DNA from: Escherichia coli
Lineage (GTDB): Bacteria > Pseudomonadota > Gammaproteobacteria > Enterobacterales > Enterobacteriaceae
Assembly: GCF_050920415.1 (NCBI RefSeq)
Contig: NZ_CP169309.1
Reading direction: 5' to 3' (one strand)
Length of the DNA stretch: 64,000 nucleotides
Shown: positions 3,208 through 25,313 of the stretch, one piece after another
Layout of the letters: each line of letters opens with the position of its first letter
Numbering within the stretch: position 1 is the stretch's first letter
Program-made: the position numbers and the translations under genes
The notes under the pieces: generated by a model
What the model was told of the DNA's origin: nothing
What the model saw: the letters and a program-made list of their open reading frames with translations, nothing else
Databases searched by the model: none

Positions 3208-3382
3208 ACGTCACTATCCTTTTTTAATCTGCCGCTCATTTTACGCATATGTCGGGCAAGTGAGAAACGCATTTCAGGATAATCCGTAATTTGCTGGCGC
3301 GATTCACCTGAGCGCGACATTGAGATTATTTGTTAAGATTGTTGCGGTCGCTTTACTCCATAAACATTGCAGGGAAAGTTTT

Positions 3383-4381
3383 ATGAAAACGTTAGGTGAA
3401 TTTATTGTCGAAAAGCAGCACGAGTTTTCTCATGCTACCGGTGAGCTCACTGCTTTGCTGTCGGCAATAAAACTGGGCGCCAAGATTATCCATCGCGATA
3501 TCAACAAAGCAGGACTGGTTGATATCCTGGGTGCCAGCGGTGCTGAGAACGTGCAGGGCGAGGTTCAGCAGAAACTCGACTTGTTCGCTAATGAAAAACT
3601 GAAAGCCGCACTGAAAGCACGCGATATCGTTGCGGGCATTGCCTCTGAAGAAGAAGATGAGATTGTCGTCTTTGAAGGCTGTGAACACGCAAAATACGTG
3701 GTGCTGATGGACCCACTGGATGGCTCGTCCAACATCGATGTTAACGTCTCTGTCGGTACCATTTTCTCCATTTACCGCCGCGTTACGCCTGTTGGTACGC
3801 CGGTAACGGAAGAAGACTTCCTCCAGCCTGGTAACAAACAGGTTGCGGCAGGTTACGTGGTATACGGCTCCTCTACCATGTTGGTTTACACCACCGGATG
3901 CGGTGTTCACGCCTTTACTTACGATCCTTCGCTTGGCGTTTTCTGCCTGTGCCAGGAACGGATGCGCTTCCCGGAGAAAGGCAAAACCTACTCCATCAAC
4001 GAAGGGAACTACATTAAGTTTCCAAACGGGGTGAAGAAGTACATTAAATTCTGCCAGGAAGAAGATAAGTCTACCAACCGCCCGTATACCTCACGTTATA
4101 TCGGTTCACTGGTCGCGGATTTCCACCGTAACCTGCTGAAAGGTGGGATTTATCTCTACCCAAGCACCGCCAGCCACCCGGACGGTAAACTGCGTTTACT
4201 GTATGAGTGCAACCCGATGGCGTTCCTCGCGGAACAAGCGGGCGGTAAAGCGAGCGATGGCAAAGAGCGTATTCTGGATATCATCCCGGAAACCCTGCAC
4301 CAGCGCCGTTCGTTCTTTGTCGGCAATGACCATATGGTTGAAGATGTCGAACGCTTTATCCGTGAGTTCCCGGACGCGTAA
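3383..4381 (+). CDS. fbp: Fructose-1,6-bisphosphatase class I
   Basis: ORF track begins at 3320, but ATG 3383 ([12 protein letters not shown]...) gives the 332 aa Fbp I remember; FBPase motifs present. Confidence 0.95.
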
Positions 4382-4413
4382 TCTCCTGCGCCTCTCCACA
4401 CGGAGAGGCGTTA

Positions 4414-5409
4414 TTATTCCTGCGCAATATTGATTCTTGTCACTGGCGAACTCTGGCGATTCTCCCACAGCACCGTTAATCCACGCTGTAAGGCAATAAA
4501 AATGAACAGCAAAATGCCGATAGCGATTTTCGTCCACCATGAGCTCAGCGTGCCATCAAAGTTTATGTAAGTCTGAATTAGCCCCTGAATCGCCACGCCA
4601 AAAAGCGTCCCTAATACCGTTCCAACGCCGCCGCTCAAAAGTGTACCGCCAATCACCACCGACGCGATAGCGTCCAGTTCCACACCTACGCCCGCCAGCG
4701 CATATCCAGCCTGGGTATAAATCGAGAAGACTATCCCCGCCAGTGTTGCCAGCCCGGTGGAGAGCATATAAATGCGTATAGTGGTGCTGCGAGTGGAAAT
4801 CCCCATCAGGTTCGCCGACGTCGCGTTGCCACCAATGGCATATACCTGATTACCAAAACGGGTACGATGCGCGAGGAATATGCCGATAACTACCACCGCC
4901 AGCATCAGTAGCCCCATCGCACTTAAGCGACCGCCGCCAGGGATTTTCCATGCAAGGCTTGAGAGCGTGTCATAAACAGGATGGTTTATCGGGATCGATT
5001 CTTCCGAAACGAGATAGCTGACGCCGCGCAAAAAGAACATTCCTGCCAGGGTAATGATAAACGCCGGGATCTTCAGGGCGTCGATCAGAAGCCCCATAAA
5101 TGCGCCGAAGGCACAGCCCATCACCAGCACCAGTGGAAACGCCAGCAGCGGCGAGAGGCCGAAATCGCCAATCACTTTTGCCAGAAACACGCCGGTAAAG
5201 GCGATCACCGAACCGACGGAGAGATCGATCCCACCGGAGAGGATCACAAAGGTCATGCCAACGGCGATGATCCCCAGAAAAGCGTTATCGGTCAGGATAT
5301 TGCAGATCACTCTTGTGGAAGCAAAACCGGGAAACTGCGTCAGACAGTAGAGATAACCCAGCACAAAGACGCCGATGGTGATCATAAGCGGCAGGTTACG
5401 TTTTATCAC
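4414..5409 (-). CDS. yjfF: Galactofuranose ABC transporter permease
   Basis: 331 aa polytopic membrane ORF, ABC sugar-permease family; 14 nt overlap with ytfT upstream. Confidence 0.92.
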   Translation of the reverse strand: MIKRNLPLMITIGVFVLGYLYCLTQFPGFASTRVICNILTDNAFLGIIAVGMTFVILSGGIDLSVGSVIAFTGVFLAKVIGDFGLSPLLAFPLVLVMGCAFGAFMGLLIDALKIPAFIITLAGMFFLRGVSYLVSEESIPINHPVYDTLSSLAWKIPGGGRLSAMGLLMLAVVVIGIFLAHRTRFGNQVYAIGGNATSANLMGISTRSTTIRIYMLSTGLATLAGIVFSIYTQAGYALAGVGVELDAIASVVIGGTLLSGGVGTVLGTLFGVAIQGLIQTYINFDGTLSSWWTKIAIGILLFIFIALQRGLTVLWENRQSSPVTRINIAQE

Positions 5410-6418
5410 GGCTACGCACTCCTTTAATCAGACTGATAAAGCGTTGCGACTGAACAATCAGCACGCAAAGCACCACCACTGCTTTCACTACCTGGTTCAT
5501 CTCTGGCGGAAAGCCAGAAAGTAAAATTCCGGTGTTCATCCCCTGAATAATCAGCGCCCCTACCACTGAGAGCAGCAGGTTAAAACGCCCGCCCATCAGC
5601 GATCCACCGCCAATCACCACCGCAAGAATGGCGTCCAGCTCCAGCCATAATCCGGCGTTGTTGGCATCGGCACCGCGAATATCCGCCGCCACGATAATGC
5701 CCGCAATCGCCGCACACAGCCCGCTCAACACATAAGTGAGCATGACGATGATTCGTGTGTTGACTCCGGCATTTTTTGCCGCCCGAATGTTGATACCAAC
5801 GGCTTCGATAAACATCCCCAGTGCCGTTTTGCGGGTCAACAGCCAGAAGAGGAGAAGCGTCAGTACCGCAATAATGACTGGTGTTGGCAGGAACACCAGC
5901 GATCCGCTGCCAAACCATGAGAGATCCGGCGAGTTAAACGTGACGATCTGTCCGGAGGTGATCAGTTGCGCCACGCCGCGCCCGGCGACCATCAGGATCA
6001 GGGTGGCGACAAACGGCTGAATTTTGAGGATCGCTACAAGTATGCCGTTCCACAACCCCGCCAGGATGCCGGTGCCCAGGGCGCTTAACAAAACAATCGG
6101 CAGGCTGAATCCCGCGACCGTCATCGCAGCCGTTGTGGCTCCGGCGATAGCCATCACCGCCCCTACGGAGAGATCGATACCACCGGTGGCGATAACCAGC
6201 GTCATACCGATAGCCAACAGCGCAACGGGTGCCGCACGGTTAAGAATGTCGATGGGGCTACCGAACAAACGCCCATCCTGAAGCACGACCTGCCAGAAAT
6301 GCGGGGCCACCAGGCTATCGACCAGCAGCACCAGCAATAGCGCCGCCAGCTGCGGCATTCCCGTTGGCCAGCGAAAGCGCCTTTTCGGCGGCGTAGTGTC
6401 CGGGAGAGATTGAGGCAT
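5396..6418 (-). CDS. ytfT: Galactofuranose ABC transporter permease
   Basis: ORF track start at 6442 is TTG; AAGGAG Shine-Dalgarno followed by ATG at 6416-6418 gives MPQSLPDTTPPKRR... (340 aa). Confidence 0.9.
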   Translation of the reverse strand: MPQSLPDTTPPKRRFRWPTGMPQLAALLLVLLVDSLVAPHFWQVVLQDGRLFGSPIDILNRAAPVALLAIGMTLVIATGGIDLSVGAVMAIAGATTAAMTVAGFSLPIVLLSALGTGILAGLWNGILVAILKIQPFVATLILMVAGRGVAQLITSGQIVTFNSPDLSWFGSGSLVFLPTPVIIAVLTLLLFWLLTRKTALGMFIEAVGINIRAAKNAGVNTRIIVMLTYVLSGLCAAIAGIIVAADIRGADANNAGLWLELDAILAVVIGGGSLMGGRFNLLLSVVGALIIQGMNTGILLSGFPPEMNQVVKAVVVLCVLIVQSQRFISLIKGVRSRDKT

Positions 6419-6431
6419 CACACAGTTCTCC

Positions 6432-7934
6432 TTACGCCGCAATGGCGTTCATGATCGCCGGAACGGAAAGCTCTGCCAACGGGATCTCCGCAACCTGTTT
6501 GCGATCGCGCATGATAATCACCCGGTCGGCATAGCCCACCAGCTCTTCCAGTTCGGAGGAGATCACCAGCAGCGCCAGACCATCGGCGCATAGCGTTTCG
6601 ATCAGGCGGATGATCTCAGCGTGGGCGCCAACGTCAATGCCACGCGTTGGCTCGTCGAGGATCAGAAATTGCGGCCGGGTCAGTAGCCAGCGTGAGAGCA
6701 GCACTTTTTGCTGATTGCCACCGGAGAGAAACTCAATCGGCTGTTCGCTGGAAGGTGTGCGAATGCCAAGCTGGCGGATAAAGCGTTCGGCAATCTCTTG
6801 CTGTTCTTTGCGCGAAATTGGCCGTAACCAGCCGCGCTGGGCCTGGAGAGCGAGGATGATATTTTCCCGCACCGAGGCGGCGGCGATGATGCCATCGGTT
6901 TTCCTGTCTTCCGGGCAGAAGCCGATACCCAGTACCGAAGCCTGATGTGGCGATCGCAGGGTTTGCTGTTTGCCTTTGATCAACGCCGTGCCGCTGTCAG
7001 CAGGTTTGATCCCGAAGATCACTTCGGCGGTTTCGGTACGTCCTGATCCCAGCAAGCCTGCCAGGCCAACGATCTCGCCGGGGCGTACTTCGAGATCAAA
7101 CGGTGCGATCGTTCCTTTTTTGCCGTAATTTTTGAACGCGGCAACGGGTTTGTCGCTCAGCAATGTTCGTCCGGCACGCTGTAGCGCGTGGGTGTCCAGC
7201 TCGCGCCCCAGCATCATTTTTACCAGTTCGATCTGCGGTAGCTCGCGGGTTTCCCGACAGCCTACGAAACTGCCGTTGCGTAAGACGGTGATCCGATCGC
7301 TGACCTGATAGACCTGATCGAGAAAGTGAGTGACAAAGATCAGGCTGACGCCGCGATCGCGCAATTGACGCATCAGGCCAAACAGTAACTCTACTTCCTG
7401 AGTGTCGAGGCTGGCGGTGGGTTCATCGAGGATCAGCACTTTGGCGGAGAGATCGATGGCCCGGCAAATGGCGACGATTTGCTGCATCGCGACTGAAAAG
7501 CGGTTGAGCGGTTCCCGCACGTCGAGGGAGAAACCGTAAGATGCCATCAGTTCGGTGGCGCGCTTTTCCATCTCTTTACGGCGTAGAAGGCCGAAACGTT
7601 TGGGTTCGCGACCTATGAATAGATTATCAGCGACCGACATATTGGGTAGCAGGTTGACTTCCTGATAGACGGTGCCGATGCCGAGTTGTTGTGCGTGGGC
7701 GGTATTTTTCGGTGAGATAGTCTGGCCTTCCAGCCAGATGGTGCCACGATCGGCGTGGTAGACACCGGTTAATGCTTTGATTAGCGTTGATTTTCCCGCC
7801 CCGTTTTCACCGAGCAGCGCCATAATTTCACCACGGCGCAGGCTGAAATCAACGTTGTCTAACGCTTTGACGCCGGGGAAAAATTTACTTAATCCTTCGG
7901 TGCGGAGGATTTCCTGGTGTTGGTTAGTATTCAT
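6432..7934 (-). CDS. ytfR: Galactofuranose ABC transporter ATP-binding protein (duplicated ABC domains)
   Basis: Start reassigned to ATG 7932-7934 (MNTNQHQEILRTEGL..., 500 aa); two Walker A motifs (GENGAGKST, GLLGSGRTE) and an LSGGNQQK signature. Confidence 0.92.
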   Translation of the reverse strand: MNTNQHQEILRTEGLSKFFPGVKALDNVDFSLRRGEIMALLGENGAGKSTLIKALTGVYHADRGTIWLEGQTISPKNTAHAQQLGIGTVYQEVNLLPNMSVADNLFIGREPKRFGLLRRKEMEKRATELMASYGFSLDVREPLNRFSVAMQQIVAICRAIDLSAKVLILDEPTASLDTQEVELLFGLMRQLRDRGVSLIFVTHFLDQVYQVSDRITVLRNGSFVGCRETRELPQIELVKMMLGRELDTHALQRAGRTLLSDKPVAAFKNYGKKGTIAPFDLEVRPGEIVGLAGLLGSGRTETAEVIFGIKPADSGTALIKGKQQTLRSPHQASVLGIGFCPEDRKTDGIIAAASVRENIILALQAQRGWLRPISRKEQQEIAERFIRQLGIRTPSSEQPIEFLSGGNQQKVLLSRWLLTRPQFLILDEPTRGIDVGAHAEIIRLIETLCADGLALLVISSELEELVGYADRVIIMRDRKQVAEIPLAELSVPAIMNAIAA

Positions 7935-7957
7935 AGTTTCCCCCGTAGTAAAGCGTG

Positions 7958-8062
7958 CGCCAGATAAGACACAACAGCGTCGCATCAGGCATCTCGCACA
8001 ACCGCCGGATGCGGCGTGAATGCCTTATCCGGCGGCCCACAAGTCGGCATCAGGCATTGATG
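7958..8062. repeat. REP/BIME cluster
   Basis: CGCATCAGGCAT...GCCGGATGCGGCGTGAATGCCTTATCCGGCGG...GGCATCAGGCATTGATGCC palindromic units between ytfR and ytfQ. Confidence 0.85.
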
Positions 8063-8066
8063 CCCC

Positions 8067-9023
8067 TCAATACCCCATGTTTTTCTTCTTCTCTAACTCT
8101 TCTTTTGCAGTATCAGGCAGATAAAGGGTGGACTTGGTCAGGGTCAGCTTTTCAGGCAGGGTGCCGTCTTTTTTATATTTCTCCAGCGCATCAAAAGCGG
8201 GGCCTGCCATGTTCGGCGTCAGTTCAACGCTGGCGTTCGCTTCGCCATCAATCATCGCTTTGTAGATGTCCGGCACGCCGTCGATAGAGCCTGTCAGGAT
8301 ATCTTTGCCCGGTTTCAGGCCCGCTTCTTTAATTGCCTGAATTGCACCAATCACCATGTCATCGTTATGGGCGTAAACCATGCAGATGTTTTTGCCGTTG
8401 TTTTCCGCTTTGATAAAGCTCTCCATCACTTCTTTGCCTTTACTACGGGTAAAGTCACCTGACTGCGAGCGGATAATTTTGATATTTGGCGCATTCTTAA
8501 TGGCTTCGGCAAAGCCTTTCTTACGGTCAATGGCGACACTGGCCCCAACGGTGCCCTGCAGCTCCACCACGTTACACGGTTTGCCATTCACTTCTTTTAC
8601 CAGCCAGTCACCGATCAATTTGCCTTCGAGGATGTTGTCGGCAGTGACGGTGGTCATATAGAGAGATTTGTCTTTCACATCGATGGAACGGTCAAGCAAG
8701 AAGACCGGGATTTCGGCATCTTTCGCCTCTTTTAATACCGGCTCCCAACCGGTCGCTACCACCGGAGCGATAAAGATCGCATCCACCCCTTGCGCGACGA
8801 AGGAACGTACCGCTTTAATCTGGTTTTCCTGCTTTTGCTGACCATCGGCAATTTTCAACGTAATTCCGCGCTTTTCGGCTTCACTTTTCGCCACATTGGT
8901 TTCTGCGGCGCGCCAGCCGGATTCCGATCCGACCTGCGAAAATCCAACGGTTAATGGAGCAGCCAACGCCATAGACGACATGGCTGCCGAGACTGCAGAG
9001 ACTACAAGTAAGCGTTTCCACAT
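8067..9023 (-). CDS. ytfQ: Periplasmic galactofuranose-binding protein
   Basis: 318 aa ORF with signal peptide MWKRLLVVSAVSAAMSSMALA; periplasmic sugar-binding fold; heads the ytfQRT-yjfF cluster. Confidence 0.94.
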   Translation of the reverse strand: MWKRLLVVSAVSAAMSSMALAAPLTVGFSQVGSESGWRAAETNVAKSEAEKRGITLKIADGQQKQENQIKAVRSFVAQGVDAIFIAPVVATGWEPVLKEAKDAEIPVFLLDRSIDVKDKSLYMTTVTADNILEGKLIGDWLVKEVNGKPCNVVELQGTVGASVAIDRKKGFAEAIKNAPNIKIIRSQSGDFTRSKGKEVMESFIKAENNGKNICMVYAHNDDMVIGAIQAIKEAGLKPGKDILTGSIDGVPDIYKAMIDGEANASVELTPNMAGPAFDALEKYKKDGTLPEKLTLTKSTLYLPDTAKEELEKKKNMGY

Positions 9024-9332
9024 AGGGTTGTCCTCGTCGGGGTAATTATTATTGGTGAAAAGATGTTCGCGAAAAAACTATAGACAATTCGTTATGTAAC
9101 GGATTGCGTTACATCACACTTCAAAAAAGTAAATAAAACGTTAATCACAAGTTTGTAATCGCTTTCATCTCACTATGAAAAATGCGGCTACGGTTATGGA
9201 TTTTCCTGCTCTGTAAACCTTCTTAAAACTGGCGAAAAAGGAAAATGAAGACGAAAACAAGCGAAGACATTCGGCGCGAGTTGGCTATAATACTCGGCAC
9301 TTGTTTGCCACATATTTTTAAAGGAAACAGAC

Positions 9333-9863
9333 ATGAGCTTACTCAACGTCCCTGCGGGTAAAGATCTGCCGGAAGACATCTACGTTGTTATTGAGATCCC
9401 GGCTAACGCAGATCCGATCAAATACGAAATCGACAAAGAGAGCGGCGCACTGTTCGTTGACCGCTTCATGTCCACCGCGATGTTCTATCCGTGCAACTAC
9501 GGTTACATCAACCACACCCTGTCTCTGGACGGTGACCCGGTTGACGTACTGGTCCCGACTCCGTACCCGCTGCAGCCGGGTTCCGTGATTCGCTGCCGTC
9601 CGGTTGGCGTTCTGAAAATGACCGACGAAGCCGGTGAAGATGCGAAACTGATTGCTGTTCCGCACACCAAGCTGAGCAAAGAATACGATCACATCAAAGA
9701 CGTTAACGATCTGCCTGAACTGCTGAAAGCACAGATCGCTCACTTCTTCGAGCACTACAAAGACCTCGAAAAAGGCAAGTGGGTGAAAGTTGAAGGCTGG
9801 GAAAACGCAGAAGCCGCTAAAGCTGAAATCGTTGCCTCCTTCGAGCGCGCAAAGAATAAATAA
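9333..9863 (+). CDS. ppa: Inorganic pyrophosphatase
   Basis: 176 aa [37 protein letters not shown]...; AGGAAA Shine-Dalgarno; divergent from ytfQ. Confidence 0.97.
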
Positions 9864-9879
9864 GTTCTTCTAGTGCCAT

Positions 9880-9917
9880 AACCCTGAACGCCGGGCTTCG
9901 GTTAGTAAGGGTTTTTT
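9880..9917 (+). terminator. Probable ppa terminator (imperfect hairpin with T6 run)
   Basis: AACCCT...AGGGTT inverted arms followed by TTTTTT at 9912-9917, directly after the ppa stop; stem is imperfect. Confidence 0.4.
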
Positions 9918-10210
9918 ATGCCCGCGATAAATAAACTGTCTATTCCCCTATCATTATTCTCAGCGCTTGCAAGGCTTGAACGGTAAGAACAAGCAAACAC
10001 GACCACCATTTTGCTGTTCATAGCCGCTTGCTGGAAATTAGCCGACCTCACTCATTCTCACCGTTCAAAGCATGCCCCCGTTTTACCCCTACGTAATTGT
10101 GAACGCCAGCAGAGTTTTTTATGCGTTTACGGATATGGAAAGCGGCTCGGAGAGAAAAGCTAAAGATAGGGAAGTTACAAAAAAAATCGCGAGATACATC
10201 GCATAAAACA

Positions 10211-10238
10211 ACGCCACCCGAAGGTGGCGTGCTTTTAT
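10211..10238. terminator. Rho-independent terminator hairpin (ytfP side; symmetric flanks)
   Basis: ACGCCACC-CGAA-GGTGGCGT stem-loop with a T-rich tract on the minus strand just past the ytfP stop and CTTTTATT on the plus strand. Confidence 0.75.
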
Positions 10239-10240
10239 TA

Positions 10241-10582
10241 TTACTTATCCCTGTCTAACCAGTCGCCGCTTTCAATTAGCTTTAATCCATCGACGGGTCG
10301 TTGATAAACGTACATCCATGCACTCCCGTACGGCGTCTGAATCAACTGGCGCGCGTATTCACCGCCCCTGGTGCGCAAGGCATCAAGTTCGGCCAGCGTG
10401 GCGTTGTCAATACGATAAACTTCACCGTGTACTGTTCCGTTCCCCGGAACTGCGCCTGGATAGTGGCCCAGGCTATACAACTGGTAGTTATCGATACTGA
10501 AATCGCCCAGTAACTGGGCATTGGTCATCCAGTGACTGTTGCCTTGTTTGTGGCGTAAACTGCCGTAGACAAATATTCGCAT
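10241..10582 (-). CDS. ytfP: Gamma-glutamylcyclotransferase-family protein YtfP
   Basis: 113 aa ORF MRIFVYGSLRHKQGNSHWM... (YGSL motif of the GGCT fold); adjacent to tamB. Confidence 0.93.
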   Translation of the reverse strand: MRIFVYGSLRHKQGNSHWMTNAQLLGDFSIDNYQLYSLGHYPGAVPGNGTVHGEVYRIDNATLAELDALRTRGGEYARQLIQTPYGSAWMYVYQRPVDGLKLIESGDWLDRDK

Positions 10583-10584
10583 TG

Positions 10585-16133
<5,549 letters not shown>

Positions 16134-16296
16134 TTAAACGGCTTAACAAAAATCCAGTAATATGGATTAAAAAGCAGACTAAACCCCAAATATTTCTTAT
16201 GTTTTACTTTAGACCTATTCACGGTGGTTATTGTGTGCAAATACGTCTCTTGTTACAACCTTAACCCCAATGACCGATTTTCGGGAGAGCGACACC

Positions 16297-16935
16297 ATGA
16301 GTTTATTTGATAAAAAGCATCTGGTTTCCCCCGCCGATGCCCTGCCTGGACGTAACACCCCGATGCCCGTAGCCACGCTGCATGCGGTCAATGGTCACTC
16401 AATGACCAATGTACCTGACGGAATGGAGATTGCCATTTTTGCGATGGGTTGTTTCTGGGGTGTGGAGCGTCTGTTCTGGCAGTTACCCGGCGTTTACAGC
16501 ACCGCCGCAGGTTACACCGGCGGATATACGCCAAACCCCACTTATCGGGAAGTGTGCTCCGGTGATACTGGTCATGCCGAAGCGGTACGCATTGTTTACG
16601 ATCCTTCCGTCATCAGCTATGAGCAGTTGCTACAGGTATTTTGGGAGAATCACGATCCCGCCCAGGGAATGCGTCAGGGCAATGACCACGGCACGCAGTA
16701 TCGTTCAGCGATTTATCCGCTGACCCCAGAACAGGATGCCGCCGCTCGTGCCAGTCTGGAGCGTTTTCAGGCGGCGATGCTTGCCGCCGATGACGATCGT
16801 CACATCACCACGGAAATCGCTAACGCCTCACCATTTTATTATGCCGAAGATGACCACCAGCAATATCTGCATAAAAACCCATATGGTTACTGTGGAATTG
16901 GCGGAATTGGCGTCTGTCTGCCGCCGGAAGCATAG
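16297..16935 (+). CDS. msrA: Peptide methionine sulfoxide reductase A
   Basis: ORF track starts at 16231; ATG 16297 gives [20 protein letters not shown]... (212 aa) with the catalytic GCFWG motif. Confidence 0.95.
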
Positions 16936-16981
16936 CGTTACGGTTACAAATTCAGATTGTTGATAAAGTGAGCTTTGTATA

Positions 16982-17092
16982 TGCCGGATGCGGCGTAAAC
17001 GCCTTGCCAGGCCTACAAAACCCTCAAAATTCAATGCATTGCAGAGACTTCGTAGGCCTGAACAGCATAGCGCATCAGGCAGTTTTGCATTT
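16982..17092. repeat. REP/BIME cluster
   Basis: GCCGGATGCGGCGTAAACGCCTT...AGGCCTAC and GTAGGCCTG...CGCATCAGGC units between msrA and ytfL. Confidence 0.85.
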
Positions 17093-17257
17093 ATCAGTCG
17101 TCTGAATTTTAACCCTCTGGCGACTTTACAGTACCTTACGCTATACTAGCCACTGAAAATGCCGGTTCACTTTCTTCGAATCGGCTTTCAATGTGTATTT
17201 CACACAAATTAATCAACTTCCCCTTCCGAGGATCTGGCCTGAAAGGTCGGATAAGAT

Positions 17258-18601
17258 ATGTTAAACAGTATTTTTGTCATACTCTGCTTGATCGCTGTAA
17301 GTGCGTTCTTCTCGATGTCCGAGATCTCACTTGCCGCTTCACGCAAAATCAAACTAAAACTGCTGGCTGATGAAGGCAATATAAATGCCCAACGCGTTCT
17401 GAATATGCAAGAAAATCCTGGCATGTTCTTTACCGTGGTACAAATCGGTCTTAACGCAGTGGCGATTCTCGGCGGTATTGTCGGTGATGCGGCGTTTTCT
17501 CCAGCTTTTCACAGCCTGTTCTCCCGCTATATGTCGGCGGAACTCTCTGAGCAACTGAGCTTTATTCTCTCTTTCTCGTTAGTAACTGGCATGTTTATCC
17601 TGTTTGCGGATTTAACTCCGAAACGCATCGGTATGATTGCGCCAGAAGCGGTGGCTTTGCGTATCATCAACCCGATGCGCTTCTGCCTGTACGTTTGCAC
17701 CCCGTTGGTGTGGTTCTTCAACGGCCTGGCGAACATGATCTTCCGTATCTTTAAACTGCCAATGGTACGTAAAGATGACATCACTTCTGATGACATCTAT
17801 GCAGTTGTGGAAGCAGGTGCACTGGCGGGCGTGTTACGTAAACAGGAACACGAGCTGATAGAAAACGTCTTTGAGCTGGAATCCCGTACCGTTCCGTCGT
17901 CAATGACACCGCGTGAAAACGTGATTTGGTTTGATCTCCACGAAGATGAGCAAAGTCTGAAGAATAAGGTGGCGGAACATCCGCACTCGAAATTTCTCGT
18001 CTGTAATGAAGATATTGACCACATCATCGGCTATGTCGATTCTAAAGACCTGCTGAACCGCGTGCTGGCTAACCAAAGCCTGGCACTGAACAGCGGCGTA
18101 CAAATTCGCAACACACTGATTGTGCCGGATACATTAACCCTTTCAGAGGCATTGGAAAGTTTTAAAACTGCGGGTGAAGACTTCGCGGTGATCATGAACG
18201 AGTACGCGCTGGTCGTTGGGATCATCACCCTCAACGACGTAATGACCACACTAATGGGCGATCTGGTCGGTCAGGGACTGGAAGAGCAGATTGTCGCCCG
18301 TGATGAGAACTCATGGTTGATTGATGGCGGCACCCCGATTGACGACGTAATGCGTGTGCTGGATATTGATGAGTTCCCGCAGTCAGGCAACTACGAAACC
18401 ATCGGCGGCTTTATGATGTTTATGCTGCGTAAAATCCCGAAACGCACCGACTCGGTGAAATTCGCCGGCTACAAATTTGAAGTGGTGGATATCGATAACT
18501 ACCGCATCGACCAGTTGCTGGTAACGCGGATCGACAGCAAGGCCACCGCCCTTTCGCCCAAACTGCCTGACGTTAAAGATAAAGAAGAAAACGTCGCGTA
18601 A
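17258..18601 (+). CDS. ytfL: Inner-membrane CNNM/CorC-family protein (DUF21-CBS-CorC) YtfL
   Basis: 447 aa ORF with N-terminal TM helices followed by a soluble C-terminal region. Confidence 0.93.
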   Translation: MLNSIFVILCLIAVSAFFSMSEISLAASRKIKLKLLADEGNINAQRVLNMQENPGMFFTVVQIGLNAVAILGGIVGDAAFSPAFHSLFSRYMSAELSEQLSFILSFSLVTGMFILFADLTPKRIGMIAPEAVALRIINPMRFCLYVCTPLVWFFNGLANMIFRIFKLPMVRKDDITSDDIYAVVEAGALAGVLRKQEHELIENVFELESRTVPSSMTPRENVIWFDLHEDEQSLKNKVAEHPHSKFLVCNEDIDHIIGYVDSKDLLNRVLANQSLALNSGVQIRNTLIVPDTLTLSEALESFKTAGEDFAVIMNEYALVVGIITLNDVMTTLMGDLVGQGLEEQIVARDENSWLIDGGTPIDDVMRVLDIDEFPQSGNYETIGGFMMFMLRKIPKRTDSVKFAGYKFEVVDIDNYRIDQLLVTRIDSKATALSPKLPDVKDKEENVA

Positions 18602-18616
18602 CCCCAAGAAACATCA

Positions 18617-18647
18617 ACGGCTCCTGAATCAGGAGCCGTCTTATTTA
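18617..18647 (+). terminator. Rho-independent terminator of ytfL
   Basis: ACGGCTCCTGA-A-TCAGGAGCCGT perfect hairpin followed by CTTATTT. Confidence 0.8.
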
Positions 18648-18663
18648 CTGCATAGCACTTTGG

Positions 18664-18870
18664 TTAAGCCATCTCTGTTTGCAGACGCATAACCTGACGG
18701 TTAACTTCGGACATCACTGACAAATGCAGCTTATCCTTCACTTTTGGGATAAGAATCTTACCCTTATCAAATTCAAAAGCGCCAACGTCCTTGATGTATA
18801 ACCGTCCACGGAACAGGATCTTTACGTACTTCGCCACCTGCAGTGGGTTGTACCGTTGGAAAATTTTCAT
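18664..18870 (-). CDS. ytfK: Small DUF1107 protein YtfK
   Basis: Start set to ATG 18868-18870 ([20 protein letters not shown]..., 68 aa) rather than the ORF-track extension. Confidence 0.88.
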
Positions 18871-19195
18871 TGTTATCTCCTGCTGAGTATTACGCCTTTG
18901 CGGTGCCACAATCGGCCCAACTATTATGAGGCGCAAATTTTAATGCTTAGTGACTATAGACTATCCGGGTAATGTTTCCACCGCGTATAACTTTTTTTAC
19001 CTAAAGGTTACAATTATTCAGAATTATCTTTTTACCGAAGCGCGGTCTTCAGTATAAGCATTCATTTTTCATATGATTTGTGCGCTTGACCGCAAACTGG
19101 CATCACACTTGCGGGAAATTCGATAAATAGCACATATGATTAAAATTCAGACCCCAAGTGGTCGGATCACCTGCATATCATAAGAAGGATACACC

Positions 19196-19750
19196 ATGAC
19201 CCTACGTAAGATTCTGGCACTCACCTGCCTGCTGTTGCCGATGATGGCTTCCGCACATCAGTTTGAAACCGGTCAACGAGTGCCACCGATAGGCATTACC
19301 GATCGGGGCGAGTTGGTGCTTGATAAAGATCAGTTTAGCTACAAAACCTGGAACAGCGCGCAGTTAGTGGGAAAAGTGCGAGTACTGCAACATATTGCTG
19401 GTCGCACCTCTGCAAAAGAGAAAAACGCGACGCTGATTGAAGCGATTAAATCAGCAAAGTTACCGCACGATCGTTACCAGACCACCACCATTGTGAACAC
19501 CGACGACGCGATTCCGGGTTCTGGCATGTTTGTGCGCAGCAGTCTGGAGAGTAATAAAAAGCTTTATCCCTGGTCGCAGTTTATTGTCGATAGCAATGGC
19601 ATCGCGCGCGGTGCCTGGCAGCTAGATGAAGAAAGTTCCGCTGTAGCGGTGCTGGACAAAGACGGTCGAGTGCAATGGGCCAAAGACGGTGCGCTCACTC
19701 AGGAAGAGGTGCAGCAAGTGATGAACCTGCTGCAAAAGTTGCTCAAATAA
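19196..19750 (+). CDS. ytfJ: Periplasmic protein YtfJ
   Basis: 184 aa ORF with signal peptide MTLRKILALTCLLLPMMASA; AAGGAT Shine-Dalgarno. Confidence 0.92.
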   Translation: MTLRKILALTCLLLPMMASAHQFETGQRVPPIGITDRGELVLDKDQFSYKTWNSAQLVGKVRVLQHIAGRTSAKEKNATLIEAIKSAKLPHDRYQTTTIVNTDDAIPGSGMFVRSSLESNKKLYPWSQFIVDSNGIARGAWQLDEESSAVAVLDKDGRVQWAKDGALTQEEVQQVMNLLQKLLK

Positions 19751-19783
19751 TGTTAATAACATAAATTCTGGAAAAATAAATTT

Positions 19784-19810
19784 CCCCTATCGATATATAT
19801 GGGATAGGGG
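19784..19810. terminator. Hairpin terminator between convergent ytfJ and ytfI
   Basis: CCCCTATC-loop-GATAGGGG stem with an A/T-rich tract on the minus-strand side. Confidence 0.6.
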
Positions 19811-19850
19811 AATTAAGTCTCTGAGTTTTTACGCCGAACTCATACTAGTA

Positions 19851-20774
19851 TCAATAACCCTTATTCGCGTTTAACGGTTTTACCTCTTTTTTAAACGCTT
19901 CAATGGTAGATTTATATTTCTTGTGAATCTTGTCTTCGGTATAATTACCGTTTGCGGCCAGATTTGCACTTACAATCGCTTCCACTTGCTCGGTTATTTC
20001 CACTTGTTGGTAACCTGCATTAACCAGAAAATTATAAATAAGAGAGTAATCTTCACCCTGCAAAAAAATATAAGAGCCAGTTCGAAGTTCCTCATCCCCT
20101 CCATAGATTTTAAGAGCAAAGCCCAAAGATTCTATGACCATGGCATAATTTCCATTATTTATTTTCTCGCAAAAATACCATCCTTCACATTCTTTAATGC
20201 TACCTCCTGGCCCTTCAAGTTCAAATTTACCCCGTTTTAATTTGCTTACTACATTCTCCAAATAAGCAGAATCGTAAGATAAGTTACCCGCCGCCTTCCG
20301 AAAATAACCGTTAATCCTTTCAGGTATGTCAGACTGTTTTTTCTGCAAAATATCATAGGCATACAATCTTCTATTTTGTGCTAGTGGAAATTCACGGTTT
20401 TTAAAGTCTATAAATGAGTTATACTCATTTATTGTTATAGGGATTTCTTCGTATTCAAATCCAGTGCCTCGCAATGTCATTGTATATTCGGCACCGTTAT
20501 CTTTAAGGCGGAAGCTGATAAGAAAATTATCCATGGAGTGAACGGTTTCATCTTTTAATGAAAGCACCTGATAACTATTTTTATCGATCTGTGTTGCTCT
20601 AAGAAAGAACTCCCTTAAAATTAACAGACTATCATAATTCGAAATCCAATCCCTTTTCTTAAATGCATGCTGAATATTATTAAAGAAATTATTTGAATGT
20701 ATTTTTGTATGCGATGACTTTACAAATAACTCCACTGCACCAAAAAAATTATTGTGTCTAATCTTGGGTAACAT
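19851..20774 (-). CDS. ytfI: Uncharacterized protein YtfI (AT-rich gene)
   Basis: 307 aa ORF, markedly AT-rich, flanked by AT-rich intergenic DNA; no recognisable domain. Confidence 0.8.
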   Translation of the reverse strand: MLPKIRHNNFFGAVELFVKSSHTKIHSNNFFNNIQHAFKKRDWISNYDSLLILREFFLRATQIDKNSYQVLSLKDETVHSMDNFLISFRLKDNGAEYTMTLRGTGFEYEEIPITINEYNSFIDFKNREFPLAQNRRLYAYDILQKKQSDIPERINGYFRKAAGNLSYDSAYLENVVSKLKRGKFELEGPGGSIKECEGWYFCEKINNGNYAMVIESLGFALKIYGGDEELRTGSYIFLQGEDYSLIYNFLVNAGYQQVEITEQVEAIVSANLAANGNYTEDKIHKKYKSTIEAFKKEVKPLNANKGY

Positions 20775-20986
20775 ATGACAACCTTATTATATTTGGTTAT
20801 TCTATGTCGCCATTAAATATCTTGTTAAAGAAGTAAACTATCAAAAAATGCTCATTATTAAGATATAACTCATTAGCGTTAGAATATTTACACTTTAAAT
20901 ACAATCCCTTTATATCTATAACTTTTTAGGTTGGAAACAAATCAGGATGGCAGAATCAGGAAATACACTGTTTCTGCCATATATAT

Positions 20987-21727
20987 TTAATAAATAGAGA
21001 CTCTGAACCCAGGATTCAGGAACGACTCGCGCGGGGTATAATCCAGCGGTTTACCCTGCCAGTCGTGAACGTGCGCTCCGGCCGCTGCCGCAACTGCGTG
21101 ACCGGCGGCGGTGTCCCAAATATTGGTTGGCCCGAAACGCGGGTAAAGCTGCGCCTGCCCTTCCGCCACCAGGCAGAATTTCAGCGAAGAGCCGATAGAC
21201 GTGGTTTGATGTTCGCCAAGCTGTTGCAGATACTCTTTCAGCTCCGCATCCGCATGGGAACGGCTGATCACCACCAGCGGCGGGCGCGCATCGCGGACCT
21301 GAATCTGCTTGCGTACACCGCACTCTTCTTTCCAGGCTTTGCCGTCTGCCGCGCTGTACATTACGTTCATTACCGGCGCATACACCACACCTAAAATCGG
21401 TTTGCCGTGGTCGATGAGCGCAATATTAACGGTGAATTCACCATTACGTTTAATAAACTCTTTAGTACCATCCAGCGGGTCTACCAGCCAGTAACGCTGC
21501 CAGTGTTGACGGACTTCCCAACCGGGAGGATCTTCTTCAGAAAGGACCGGAATATCCGGTGTCAGCGTACGTAAACCGTCCATGATAACGGTGTGTGCGG
21601 CAATATCCGCTGCCGTTACCGGAGAATTGTCCGCTTTGCTGACGACGTCCATCGGTTTCGTCCCGTCGTAGACCTGCATAATGGCATCGCCTGCATTCCG
21701 TGCAAGCTGGCATACTTGATCTAACAT
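20987..21727 (-). CDS. cysQ: 3'(2'),5'-bisphosphate nucleotidase
   Basis: 246 aa [23 protein letters not shown]...; inositol-monophosphatase-family motifs (DPLDGT, WDTAAG). Confidence 0.95.
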
Positions 21728-21916
21728 TTCTCCACCTCGTCTCTGTGAGCGGTGTTAACTTATTGTTTTACTTATACCCTATCGTTAAAGAATGCGCCAA
21801 CTGTGATAGTGTCATCATTTTCAAAGCGTTAAATTGTGGCATTCTTCACTGTTCTAAAAGTAAGAGGTTTATTCTCCCTTTTCTTTCGAATTCCCGATGA
21901 TAAAAGGATGTCCCTG

Positions 21917-23860
21917 ATGATTAAGTTTAGCGCAACGCTCCTGGCCACGCTGATTGCCGCGAGTGTGAATGCAGCGACGGTCGATCTGCGTATCATGGAA
22001 ACCACTGATTTGCATAGCAACATGATGGATTTCGATTATTACAAAGACACCGCCACGGAAAAATTCGGACTGGTACGTACGGCAAGCCTGATTAACGATG
22101 CCCGCAATGAAGTGAAAAACAGCGTACTGGTCGATAATGGCGATTTGATTCAGGGGAGTCCGCTGGCCGATTACATGTCGGCGAAAGGATTAAAAGCCGG
22201 AGATATTCATCCGGTCTATAAGGCATTGAATACGCTGGACTATACCGTCGGCACACTCGGTAACCACGAGTTTAACTACGGTCTGGATTACCTGAAAAAT
22301 GCACTGGCAGGAGCGAAATTCCCTTATGTAAACGCCAACGTCATTGACGCTAAAACCAAACAGCCCATGTTTACACCGTATTTGATTAAAGACACCGAAG
22401 TGGTCGATAAAGACGGAAAAAAACAGACGCTGAAGATTGGCTATATTGGCGTCGTACCGCCGCAGATTATGGGATGGGATAAAGCTAATTTATCTGGCAA
22501 AGTCACCGTTAACGATATAACGGAAACTGTGCGCAAGTACGTACCTGAAATGCGCGAGAAAGGTGCCGATCTCGTTGTCGTTTTGGCGCATTCTGGTCTC
22601 TCTGCCGATCCGTATAAAGTGATGGCAGAAAACTCAGTTTATTACCTCAGTGAAATTCCGGGCGTTGATGCCATTATGTTTGGCCATGCTCACGCCGTCT
22701 TCCCGAGTAAAGATTTTGCGAATATCAAAGGGGCTGATATCGCCAAAGGCACGCTGAACGGCGTTCCGGCGGTAATGCCGGGCATGTGGGGCGATCATCT
22801 CGGCGTGGTCGATCTGCAACTCAATAATGACAGCGGAAAATGGCAGGTGACGCAGGCGAAAGCGGAAGCACGGCCAATTTACGATATCGCCAATAAAAAA
22901 TCCCTCGCGGCGGAAGACAGCAAGCTGGTAGAAACACTTAAAGCCGATCACAACGCCACACGCCAGTTTGTCAGCAAACCAATCGGTAAATCTGCCGACA
23001 ATATGTATAGCTATTTGGCGCTGGTGCAGGACGATCCGACCGTGCAGGTGGTGAATAATGCACAAAAAGCGTATGTCGAACATTACATTCAGGGCGATCC
23101 GGATCTGGCAAAACTGCCGGTGCTTTCAGCTGCCGCACCGTTTAAAGTCGGTGGTCGCAAAAATGATCCGGCAAGCTATGTGGAGGTGGAAAAAGGTCAG
23201 CTGACTTTCCGTAATGCTGCCGATCTTTATCTCTATCCCAATACGCTGATTGTGGTGAAAGCCAGCGGTAAAGAGGTGAAAGAGTGGCTGGAGTGCTCCG
23301 CCGGACAGTTTAACCAGATTGATCCTAACAGCACGAAACCGCAGTCACTCATCAACTGGGATAGTTTCCGCACCTATAACTTTGACGTCATTGATGGTGT
23401 GAATTATCAGATTGATGTTACTCAGCCCGCCCGCTATGACGGCGAGTGCCAGGTGGTTAATGCCAATGCGGAAAGAATTAAGAACCTGACCTTTAACGGC
23501 AAGCCGATTGATCCGAACGCGATGTTCCTCGTTGCCACCAATAACTATCGCGCTTACGGCGGCAAATTTGCAGGTACGGGCGATAGCCATATCGCTTTTG
23601 CTTCACCGGATGAGAACCGCTCGGTGCTGGCAGCGTGGATTGCAGATGAGTCGAAGCGTGCGGGAGAAATTCACCCGGCGGCAGATAACAACTGGCGTTT
23701 AGCACCGATTCCCGGCGATAAGAAACTGGATATCCGTTTCGAAACCTCTCCGTCAGATAAAGCCGCAGAGTTTATTAAAGAGAAAGGGCAGTATCCGATG
23801 AATAAAGTCGCGACCGATGATATCGGCTTTGCGATTTATCAGGTGGATTTGAGTAAGTAA
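21917..23860 (+). CDS. cpdB: 2',3'-cyclic-nucleotide 2'-phosphodiesterase / 3'-nucleotidase
   Basis: ORF track starts at 21836; ATG 21917 ([19 protein letters not shown]..., 647 aa) with signal peptide and metallophosphoesterase GNHEF motif. Confidence 0.95.
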
Positions 23861-23887
23861 AACACTTTTCCCGTCTATAGATATGAA

Positions 23888-23982
23888 CCGCATCCGGCAT
23901 TTATTGGCGGATGCGGTGCTGCTGCATCTTATCCGCCCTACAGGTCATGAACCGTAGGCCGAATAAGCGCAGCGCATCCGGC
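23888..23982. repeat. REP/BIME cluster
   Basis: CGCATCCGGCA...GCGGATGCGGTG...CCGTAGGCCGAATAAGCGCAGCGCATCCGGC units between cpdB and the ytfH stop. Confidence 0.8.
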
Positions 23983-23984
23983 TG

Positions 23985-24365
23985 TTATGCCGCACGTTCA
24001 TCCCGCACTGCCAACACCTCAGGCAAATTCAACTCAATCCAGTCCGCCAGTGCAGCAACCTTTTCGCTCACCTGCTCGCCCAGCGGCGTGAGGCTGTATT
24101 CCACATGCGGCGGCACCACCGGATAAGAGATACGGTTAAGAAACCCATCCTGCTCTAACGCCTGTAACGACTGCGCAAGCATCTTTTCACTCACCCCACC
24201 CATCTTGCGGCGCAGGTCGCTAAAACGGTGCGTACCTTCGCGAAGCGCGACCAGAATCAATACCCCCCAACGGCTGGTGACGTGTTTCAACACCTCGCGC
24301 GACGGGCACTGTTCGGCGAAGAGGTTACCCTCTTTCAGTTGTTGCGACAGGCTAGCCTGGCTCAT
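23985..24365 (-). CDS. ytfH: HxlR-type winged-helix transcriptional regulator
   Basis: 126 aa ORF MSQASLSQQLKEGNLFAEQCPSREVLKHVTSRWG...; divergent from ytfG. Confidence 0.9.
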   Translation of the reverse strand: MSQASLSQQLKEGNLFAEQCPSREVLKHVTSRWGVLILVALREGTHRFSDLRRKMGGVSEKMLAQSLQALEQDGFLNRISYPVVPPHVEYSLTPLGEQVSEKVAALADWIELNLPEVLAVRDERAA

Positions 24366-24387
24366 TCATACTTACCTTTTTGTACGT

Positions 24388-24404
24388 ACTTACTAAAAGT
24401 AAGT
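24388..24404. promoter_or_regulatory. Perfect palindrome ACTTAC-TAAAA-GTAAGT in the ytfH/ytfG divergent region (candidate operator)
   Basis: 6 bp perfect inverted arms with a 5 bp A/T spacer, centred between the two divergent start codons. Confidence 0.3.
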
Positions 24405-24452
24405 TTAGGTGGTAGCGTATTTAAACACAAGACAAACCGATGGAGGCTTCCC

Positions 24453-25313
24453 ATGATCGCAATTACCGGCGCAACCGGCCAACTTGGTCACCATGTTATT
24501 AACTCCTTACTGAAAACCGTTCCTGCCAGCCAAATAGTGGCTATCGCGCGTAACCCGGCAAAAGCACACGCACTGACAGCACAAGGCATTACTGTACGTC
24601 AGGCTGACTACGGCGATGAAGCCGCACTGACATCTGCGCTTCAGGGTGTGGAAAAACTGCTGCTGATCTCTTCCAGCGAAGTGGGGCAACGTGCCCTGCA
24701 GCATCGAAATGTTATTAATGCCGCTAAGGCGGCGGGCGTGAAATTTATCGCTTATACCAGCCTGCTACATGCTGATACCTCCCCGCTCGGCCTCGCCGAT
24801 GAGCACATCGAGACGGAGAAAATGCTGGCTGTTTCTGGCATCGCTTACACCTTGCTGCGCAACGGCTGGTACACCGAAAACTATCTCGCCAGCGCCCCGG
24901 CAGCACTGGAGCACGGCGTATTTATCGGTGCCGCGGGCGATGGCAAAATTGCCTCAGCTACGCGAGCTGATTATGCGGTAGCTGCGGCGCGCGTAATTAG
25001 CGAAGCAGGTCACGAAGGCAAGGTTTATGAACTGGCAGGTGATAGCGCCTGGACACTGACACAGTTAGCGGCGGAACTCACCAAACAGAGCGGCAAACAG
25101 GTTACCTATCAAAACCTGAGCGAAGCTGATTTCGCCGCGGCGCTGAAAAGCGTCGGTCTGCCTGACGGGCTGGCGGATATGCTGGCAGATTCTGACGTTG
25201 GCGCATCGAAAGGCGGCCTGTTTGATGACAGCAAAACGCTGAGCAAATTGATTGGCCGCCCAACGACAACATTAGCCGAGAGCGTAAGCCATCTTTTTAA
25301 TGTTAATAACTAG
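24453..25313 (+). CDS. ytfG: NAD(P)H:quinone oxidoreductase (NmrA-like)
   Basis: ORF track starts at 24228; GGAGG Shine-Dalgarno then ATG 24453 gives MIAITGATGQLGHHVINSL... (286 aa) with a Rossmann GATGQLG motif. Confidence 0.93.
   Translation: MIAITGATGQLGHHVINSLLKTVPASQIVAIARNPAKAHALTAQGITVRQADYGDEAALTSALQGVEKLLLISSSEVGQRALQHRNVINAAKAAGVKFIAYTSLLHADTSPLGLADEHIETEKMLAVSGIAYTLLRNGWYTENYLASAPAALEHGVFIGAAGDGKIASATRADYAVAAARVISEAGHEGKVYELAGDSAWTLTQLAAELTKQSGKQVTYQNLSEADFAAALKSVGLPDGLADMLADSDVGASKGGLFDDSKTLSKLIGRPTTTLAESVSHLFNVNN

Follow-up and report, generated by a model that had tools for sequence, protein, structure and literature searches.

The convergent genes ppa, encoding inorganic diphosphatase, and ytfP, encoding a protein of the gamma-glutamylcyclotransferase family, are separated by 377 bp (9864-10240) in the stretch of Escherichia coli DNA analyzed here (the window, 64 kb in all), with ytfQ and tamB as neighbors of the locus (Table 1). 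This is the spacing given in the initial annotation, ppa ending at 9863 and ytfP at 10241. Positions 5000-25000 of the window are 100% identical to E. coli MFDS1022581 (NZ_CP169399.1), in whose annotation the ppa-ytfP interval has no gene. The same region is an outlier in the species: NZ_CP169399.1 is the sole record at least 99% identical to it over 20 kb, with 98.4% for the runner-up among 5,426 genomes.

Table 1. Features in and around the ppa-ytfP spacer, by position in the window. Scar alleles are spacers with the same chpB remnant as the window; chpSB alleles have an intact chpS-chpB operon.
Feature	Position	Strand	Basis and remarks
ytfQ	8067-9023	-	Neighbor of the locus
ppa (inorganic diphosphatase), CDS	9333-9863	+	176-aa ORF; annotated ppa in NZ_CP169399.1; left spacer boundary
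Likely ppa intrinsic terminator	9880-9917	+	Interrupted hairpin followed by T run; in scar and chpSB alleles
ORF with non-ATG start, 49 aa	9902-10051	-	ORF listing
Probable distal chpB relic	9940-9970	-	Stop TAG (complement of 9940-9942), last codons, 201-nt deletion junction, codons ~41-46
Core chpB relic	9971-10069	-	ChpB codons ~7-40 (F7 to F40); in-frame stops, small indels
ORF with non-ATG start, 50 aa	10011-10163	+	ORF listing
9-nt filler GCATGCCCC	10070-10078		Alignments; second deletion junction, replacing 312 nt of K-12
Segment common to scar and chpSB alleles	10079-10187		In K-12, lies between ytfP terminators and chpS operator
Two tandem terminator-like hairpins downstream of ytfP	10230-10211, 10203-10188	-	Terminator scan; T run after each
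ytfP (gamma-glutamylcyclotransferase family), CDS	10241-10582	-	113-aa ORF; annotated ytfP in NZ_CP169399.1; right spacer boundary
tamB	10585-14361	-	Neighbor of the locus

The elements still at work in the spacer are terminators, serving the two convergent units on either side. The hairpin following ppa has a weak predicted fold (-12.4 kcal/mol, z-score -0.49, with the stem at 9880-9913 and then U5), so the case for its being a terminator is made by its position and T run. The pair downstream of ytfP (10188-10230) has a predicted fold of -24.5 kcal/mol (z = -4.66). As to coding potential, the initial annotation gave the longest open reading frame of the spacer as one of 47 codons, beginning at 10121. 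There is an ATG ORF at this position, but it encodes 45 aa (46 codons including the stop), and it is slightly exceeded by two ORFs with other start codons (Table 1). It extends 18 nt into ytfP, and is not conserved, since K-12 has ATG CGT TAA at the same spot; a small protein was considered here and rejected, given the overlap with the 3′ end of ytfP and the K-12 stop at codon three.

In K-12, the interval holds chpS-chpB (also chpBI/chpBK), a type II toxin-antitoxin (TA) module of the MazEF/PemIK family. The gene order ppa-chpB-chpS-ytfP, given in the initial annotation, is indeed that annotated in the K-12 derivative TOP10 and in strain Ec387, with spacers of 886 and 887 bp, respectively. 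Also as initially proposed, the spacer has no intact ChpS or ChpB ORF; by tblastn, neither gene is intact there or elsewhere in the 64 kb. K-12 ChpS has no match in the spacer, and its best matches elsewhere in the window have E-values of at least 5; below E = 1 there is a single match of any kind, to 24 residues of ChpB (10046-9975), interrupted by a stop. The component parts of a TA module are missing accordingly. The antitoxin gene (ChpS is of the MazE/AbrB type, encoded upstream of the toxin) is wholly deleted in the alignment. Of the toxin (ChpB, 116 aa, with a PemK/MazF fold), residues ~7-46 and the last residues are left, with stops and indels. An autoregulated promoter/operator is lacking as well: the K-12 palindrome GTTATAC-N3-GTATAAC (GTTATACTTTGTATAAC) upstream of chpS, presumably the operator, falls with the ribosome-binding site inside 312 nt that the window does not have. 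A promoter scan found no promoter-like site in the spacer, and an Rfam scan of 9000-11000 at E ≤ 1 matched no family.

From this absence the initial annotation took the spacer for an apparent empty site. While the module is indeed absent, the site is not unoccupied, since 9971-10069 matches the 5′ part of chpB. The relic is visible in pairwise alignment and in blastn with short words; a three-way MAFFT alignment had misplaced a large gap, masking it. The K-12 spacer and the window align as three collinear blocks: 9864-9936, the ppa terminator region (93% identical); 9971-10069 (76.2% over 101 bp, blastn E = 1.9e-13 within the window); and 10079-10230 (86% over 153 bp, compared with 91-93% to other E. 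coli scar alleles). At the protein level, ChpB residues 15-38 align at 54% identity across an internal stop (tblastn, E = 0.007), and in a 28-Gb database a 156-bp query specific to the relic-bearing spacer matches annotated chpB in chpSB-positive genomes (76%, E = 1e-8). The initial annotation had proposed pairwise alignment as a check, with chpBS-like sequence in the interval as the outcome that would count against its reading. Such sequence is found for chpB, which contradicts an empty site on those terms; none is found for chpS. What is present has the properties of a pseudogene relic, with homology at the syntenic position, flanks collinear with K-12, in-frame stops and several frameshifting indels.

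The relic probably continues beyond its core. Positions 9940-9970 can be aligned only under the two-deletion model described below, and are alone too short for significance; within them, the junction of the modelled 201-nt deletion would lie at about 9945-9950, in a degenerate TGGTGG. In two sister alleles (AR437 and that at locus L013), the sequence TGG(T/C)GGAATA matches the K-12 chpB end, with 24/28 and 23/28 identities, respectively. Because the chpB end is recognizable in sister alleles (as TGG(T/C)GGAATA(A/G)), the relic is taken to extend over ~9940-10069 on the minus strand.

Nearer to ytfP (10079-10240), the spacer has a different character, being mosaic. Here the chpSB-positive strain Ec387 matches the window at polymorphic sites where K-12 differs; K-12 (TOP10 locus L001, 2489-2650) is 86% identical to the window over this part, with a different second hairpin (GCGAGTCGTCTCGC) and a different sequence beside the ytfP stop. 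Such a pattern implies that recombination has had breakpoints within the spacer.

The 377-bp spacer is very probably the deletion scar of a chpS-chpB operon formerly resident at this position, with ~130 nt of dead chpB left in it (hereafter, the scar). The absence of chpSB reflects old deletional decay, not a never-filled site or a clean excision. Two deletions would account for it. The first would be an in-frame loss of 201 nt within chpB (nt 140-340), with TGGTGG repeats at both ends, which would have taken residues ~48-114, most of the MazF/PemK fold. The second would have removed 312 nt, from just after GGGGTAAAACG to chpB nt 18, leaving the 9-nt filler; with it would have gone chpB codons 1-6, the whole of chpS, the ribosome-binding site, and the palindrome GTTATACTTTGTATAAC. 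The K-12 spacer without both modelled segments is 373 nt long, and aligns end to end with the 377-nt spacer of the window at 79% identity. The exact end points of the first deletion, and the assignment of 9940-9970, are those of a model alignment of short, diverged sequence. Because of the stops, the frameshifts, and the loss of sequence immediately upstream of chpS, the relic encodes nothing. Of chpS nothing is left, and that it was once present is deduced solely from the orthologous arrangement.

Loss of the antitoxin from an active TA pair would be lethal. For this reason the toxin was probably disabled before the antitoxin was lost, and the first deletion, in removing most of the fold, would have done so. 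We infer both this order and the age of the scar from sequence comparison, and recombination between species could mimic an ancient origin.

The opposite direction of change, in which this spacer had always been without chpSB and the module was inserted into a similar sequence in K-12-like strains, is extremely improbable. It would agree with the lack of an intact TA gene in the spacer, with the general view of TA modules as horizontally acquired accessory elements (PMC7167474), and with the occurrence of bare spacers in other genera. It does not explain why significant chpB-derived sequence should lie at the orthologous position, oriented and flanked as in K-12. Nor would simple insertion convert the scar into the K-12 allele: chpSB-positive genomes cover just 84% of a 901-bp query spanning the spacer, so a replacement would be needed. 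The bare spacers themselves argue against it too. In many genomes of Citrobacter, Enterobacter, Klebsiella, Kluyvera, Raoultella, and Salmonella, ppa and ytfP are separated by 100-170 bp with nothing between them, and this is how a truly empty site looks; the 377-bp E. coli allele, ~200-270 bp longer and with relic sequence in it, is not one.

In other members of the family the spacer has a varied content. Across Enterobacteriaceae it is a cargo hotspot (loci L016-L089, ~3340-6000 of each), bare in most genera. The cargo includes an Hcp/TssD-like gene with a C-terminal extension in Citrobacter youngae and Salmonella arizonae, a methyl-accepting chemotaxis protein gene in Silvania, Enterobacter soli, and Pluralibacter, a NadS/HigA-like pair in a Pluralibacter MAG, and unannotated membrane-protein ORFs in Enterobacter cloacae and E. 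mori. Citrobacter sedlakii has a 347-bp spacer with a weak ChpB-like match (locus L032, 3430-3471; residues 63-76, 71%, E = 1e-4), which may be an independent chpB relic. A closer donor for the E. coli relic was sought among the chpB orthologues of other genera, and none was found.

The chpB gene that decayed here need not have been one like that of K-12. At 24% divergence from all intact Escherichia chpB genes, the relic could descend from a divergent allele. One version of this idea is that a divergent chpB-like (MazF-family) allele was acquired separately and decayed more recently. The relic is 75-78% identical to every intact Escherichia chpB, and the proteins encoded by these are themselves 91-97% identical to K-12 ChpB. 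Divergent donors do exist: chpSB with 64-78% amino acid identity in ChpB occupies the same spacer in Lelliottia, Enterobacter asburiae, Pseudocitrobacter, Kluyvera, and an unclassified Enterobacteriaceae isolate. None of these more distant orthologues is matched by the relic in blastn searches, however; its matches (76-77% identity) are to Escherichia chpB only, from which it follows that the scar arose from an Escherichia-type chpB. Directly outside the module, the sequence also runs on as in the K-12 allele, and scars are deeply diverged (80-96% identity) between E. coli types and E. albertii, which indicates age whoever the donor was. A separate and more recent acquisition is thus unlikely.

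The deletion scar is widespread. The chpS-chpB module is variable among E. coli, in line with the initial annotation, which regarded TA modules as variable accessory elements: it is intact in 3,100 of the 5,426 complete E. coli genomes (57%), and in all but one of these it is 98-100% identical to K-12. The scar, counted where at least 80% of the scar query was covered, is found in 2,324 (43%), including carriers of esiB; the latter are a subset of 188 genomes (3.5% of the total). These two classes leave ~4 of the 5,426 unaccounted for. The window's own version of the scar is rare, with just 20 genomes at 95% identity or more. The scar query cross-matches chpB; in the 100%-identical strain MFDS1022581, it has a single chromosomal site. 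In the whole collection, chpSB was found on just 3 plasmid records. One strain with an unusual locus is HH45 (H100; NZ_CP116411.1, 4261412-4261512), where 17% of the K-12 chpB-chpS query is matched, under an annotated PemK/MazF-family toxin gene. Here the locus is possibly in another state of decay, or has another allele.

All eight scar alleles examined (the window, AR437, Z1323HEC0067, FDAARGOS_1301, G749, CFT073, “E. coli SCPM-O-B-8794,” and the E. albertii type strain) have the same two junctions; the scar has a single origin. Its core is 80-96% identical between scar types, while ppa and ytfP of the same strains are 95-99.8% and 95-100% identical, respectively. This faster divergence fits neutral drift of an old relic. 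Intact chpSB is found at the same position in E. whittamii, E. coli E69, and two other Escherichia species. The scar is either old enough to be common to E. coli and E. albertii, probably having arisen before or near their divergence, or was exchanged between them by recombination. Since then it would have drifted neutrally, with the intact allele persisting in other lineages.

The distribution over species (scar in E. coli and E. albertii; intact operon in E. coli, E. whittamii, and two other Escherichia species) invites a further interpretation, that the intact and scar alleles are a very old trans-speciation polymorphism maintained by balancing selection on ChpB, for example between a defence benefit and a cost, and not by drift and recombination. 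In a variant of this, the hairpin-forming fragment would have gained a structural role. We regard such selection as improbable.

The hairpin in question comes from chpB itself. The 5′ third of the Escherichia gene (~nt 19-119; TOP10 locus L001, 2065-2185, minus strand) forms a long hairpin, which the scar (9971-10075, minus strand) keeps, and even tightens. The chpB fragment might have been kept for a function of its own, its ~30-bp minus-strand hairpin acting as a structural element of RNA or DNA (an insulator or terminator separating the convergent ppa and tamAB-ytfP units, for instance) or as a small RNA. The minus strand of 9937-10078 has a predicted fold of -47.9 kcal/mol (z = -2.8; -2.3 and -3.9 in other E. 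coli scar alleles), and both deletions stop just outside this region. Every one of the eight scar alleles retains the stem: six changes, each on one side only, leave the pairing intact, and eight G-U pairs work on the minus (chpB-sense) strand only. Despite this, no pair has a compensatory double change among the eight, the hairpin is weakened in the E. albertii scar (z = 0.08), and the core containing it is the fastest-evolving segment of the locus. It lies downstream of the two strong ytfP terminators, in a spacer with neither an Rfam match nor a promoter-like site. Intact K-12 chpB has this hairpin too (z = -3.1), which shows that the scar inherited it and was not where it evolved; in other genera, chpB does not have it. 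Retention for function is therefore very unlikely, and we regard the hairpin as a peculiarity of Escherichia chpB that the scar took over, which does not count as evidence of function. As a separate possibility, a conserved RNA element of chpB was considered and rejected, as the hairpin is limited to Escherichia chpB and shows no covariation. The spacer is an ordinary, non-functional relic between two terminators.

Other elements have entered the scar-bearing spacer at its ytfP end. In CFT073 (locus L091, 6133-8167; equivalent to 10203-10240 of the window), esiB lies in a scar allele, with the full chpB scar present. The gene has entered at the first ytfP terminator hairpin, a copy of which stands on either side of it (AACGCCACCCGCAGGTGGC and AACGCCACCCGAAGGTGGCGT). 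In strains Z1323MEC0001 (locus L008, 2130-3581) and N50 (locus L009, 2814-5064), a P2-like prophage, with an integrase, an HTH repressor, and a Cox-family protein, is found inside the ytfP hairpin, adjoining the scar; in Z1323MEC0001 the junction falls within the first hairpin. With both esiB and prophage located here, the hairpin is an attachment point for phage as well as for esiB. N50 has a second peculiarity: a fragment of its scar (equivalent to 10007-10069 of the window) is not beside ppa, but directly downstream of a beta-glucoside PTS / GH1 / licT operon (locus L009, 1-2564). This arrangement points to another insertion, or a rearrangement, on the side of ppa.

The three states of the locus are not new. 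Pastorello et al. (2013, mBio, PMC3735183) reported for the ytfP-ppa locus of 47 genomes that 53% had chpBS, 15% had esiB, and 32% had neither, with short repeats flanking esiB. The window belongs to the same allele class as their “neither” state, and the corresponding figures for the 5,426 genomes here are 57% with chpSB, 3.5% with esiB, and 43% with the scar, esiB carriers included. The searched text of their paper makes no mention of a chpB remnant; the present analysis shows one and the same chpB scar in the “neither” and the esiB states. Decay of TA modules in E. coli is likewise a known theme. TA loci of this species occupy conserved positions, and some are degenerating by deletion or nonsense mutation (reviewed in PMC7167474); examples include ccdO157 (Mine et al., 2009, and Fiedoruk et al., 2015, both as cited in that review). 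The present case resembles these, as they are summarized there, in its conserved position and in decay by deletion and nonsense mutation in part of the species. It differs from them, to the extent of that summary, in that the product of decay is nearly fixed as a single scar allele and is common to E. albertii. Compared with K-12 chpS-chpB, the window has the same ytfP-ppa position, orientation, and continuous flanks, but no antitoxin gene or operator and a toxin gene reduced to ~130 nt with stops and frameshifts; it is no longer a TA module.

To the published three-state polymorphism, the present analysis makes minor additions: the anatomy of the relic, the 57/43 dimorphism that is close to complete, and the occurrence of the scar in E. 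albertii as well. Around 43% of complete E. coli genomes, as well as the E. albertii type strain, have an unannotated chpB relic between ppa and ytfP, which should not be taken as an empty insertion site when the movement of TA modules is reconstructed. The direction of change at this locus is loss by deletion, fitting the published view of chromosomal TA decay. Other cargo (esiB, a P2-like prophage) has repeatedly entered at the ytfP terminator hairpin. With 57% of genomes intact, 43% with the scar, and the latter shared with E. albertii, the locus might serve as a small case study of long-lived presence/absence variation.
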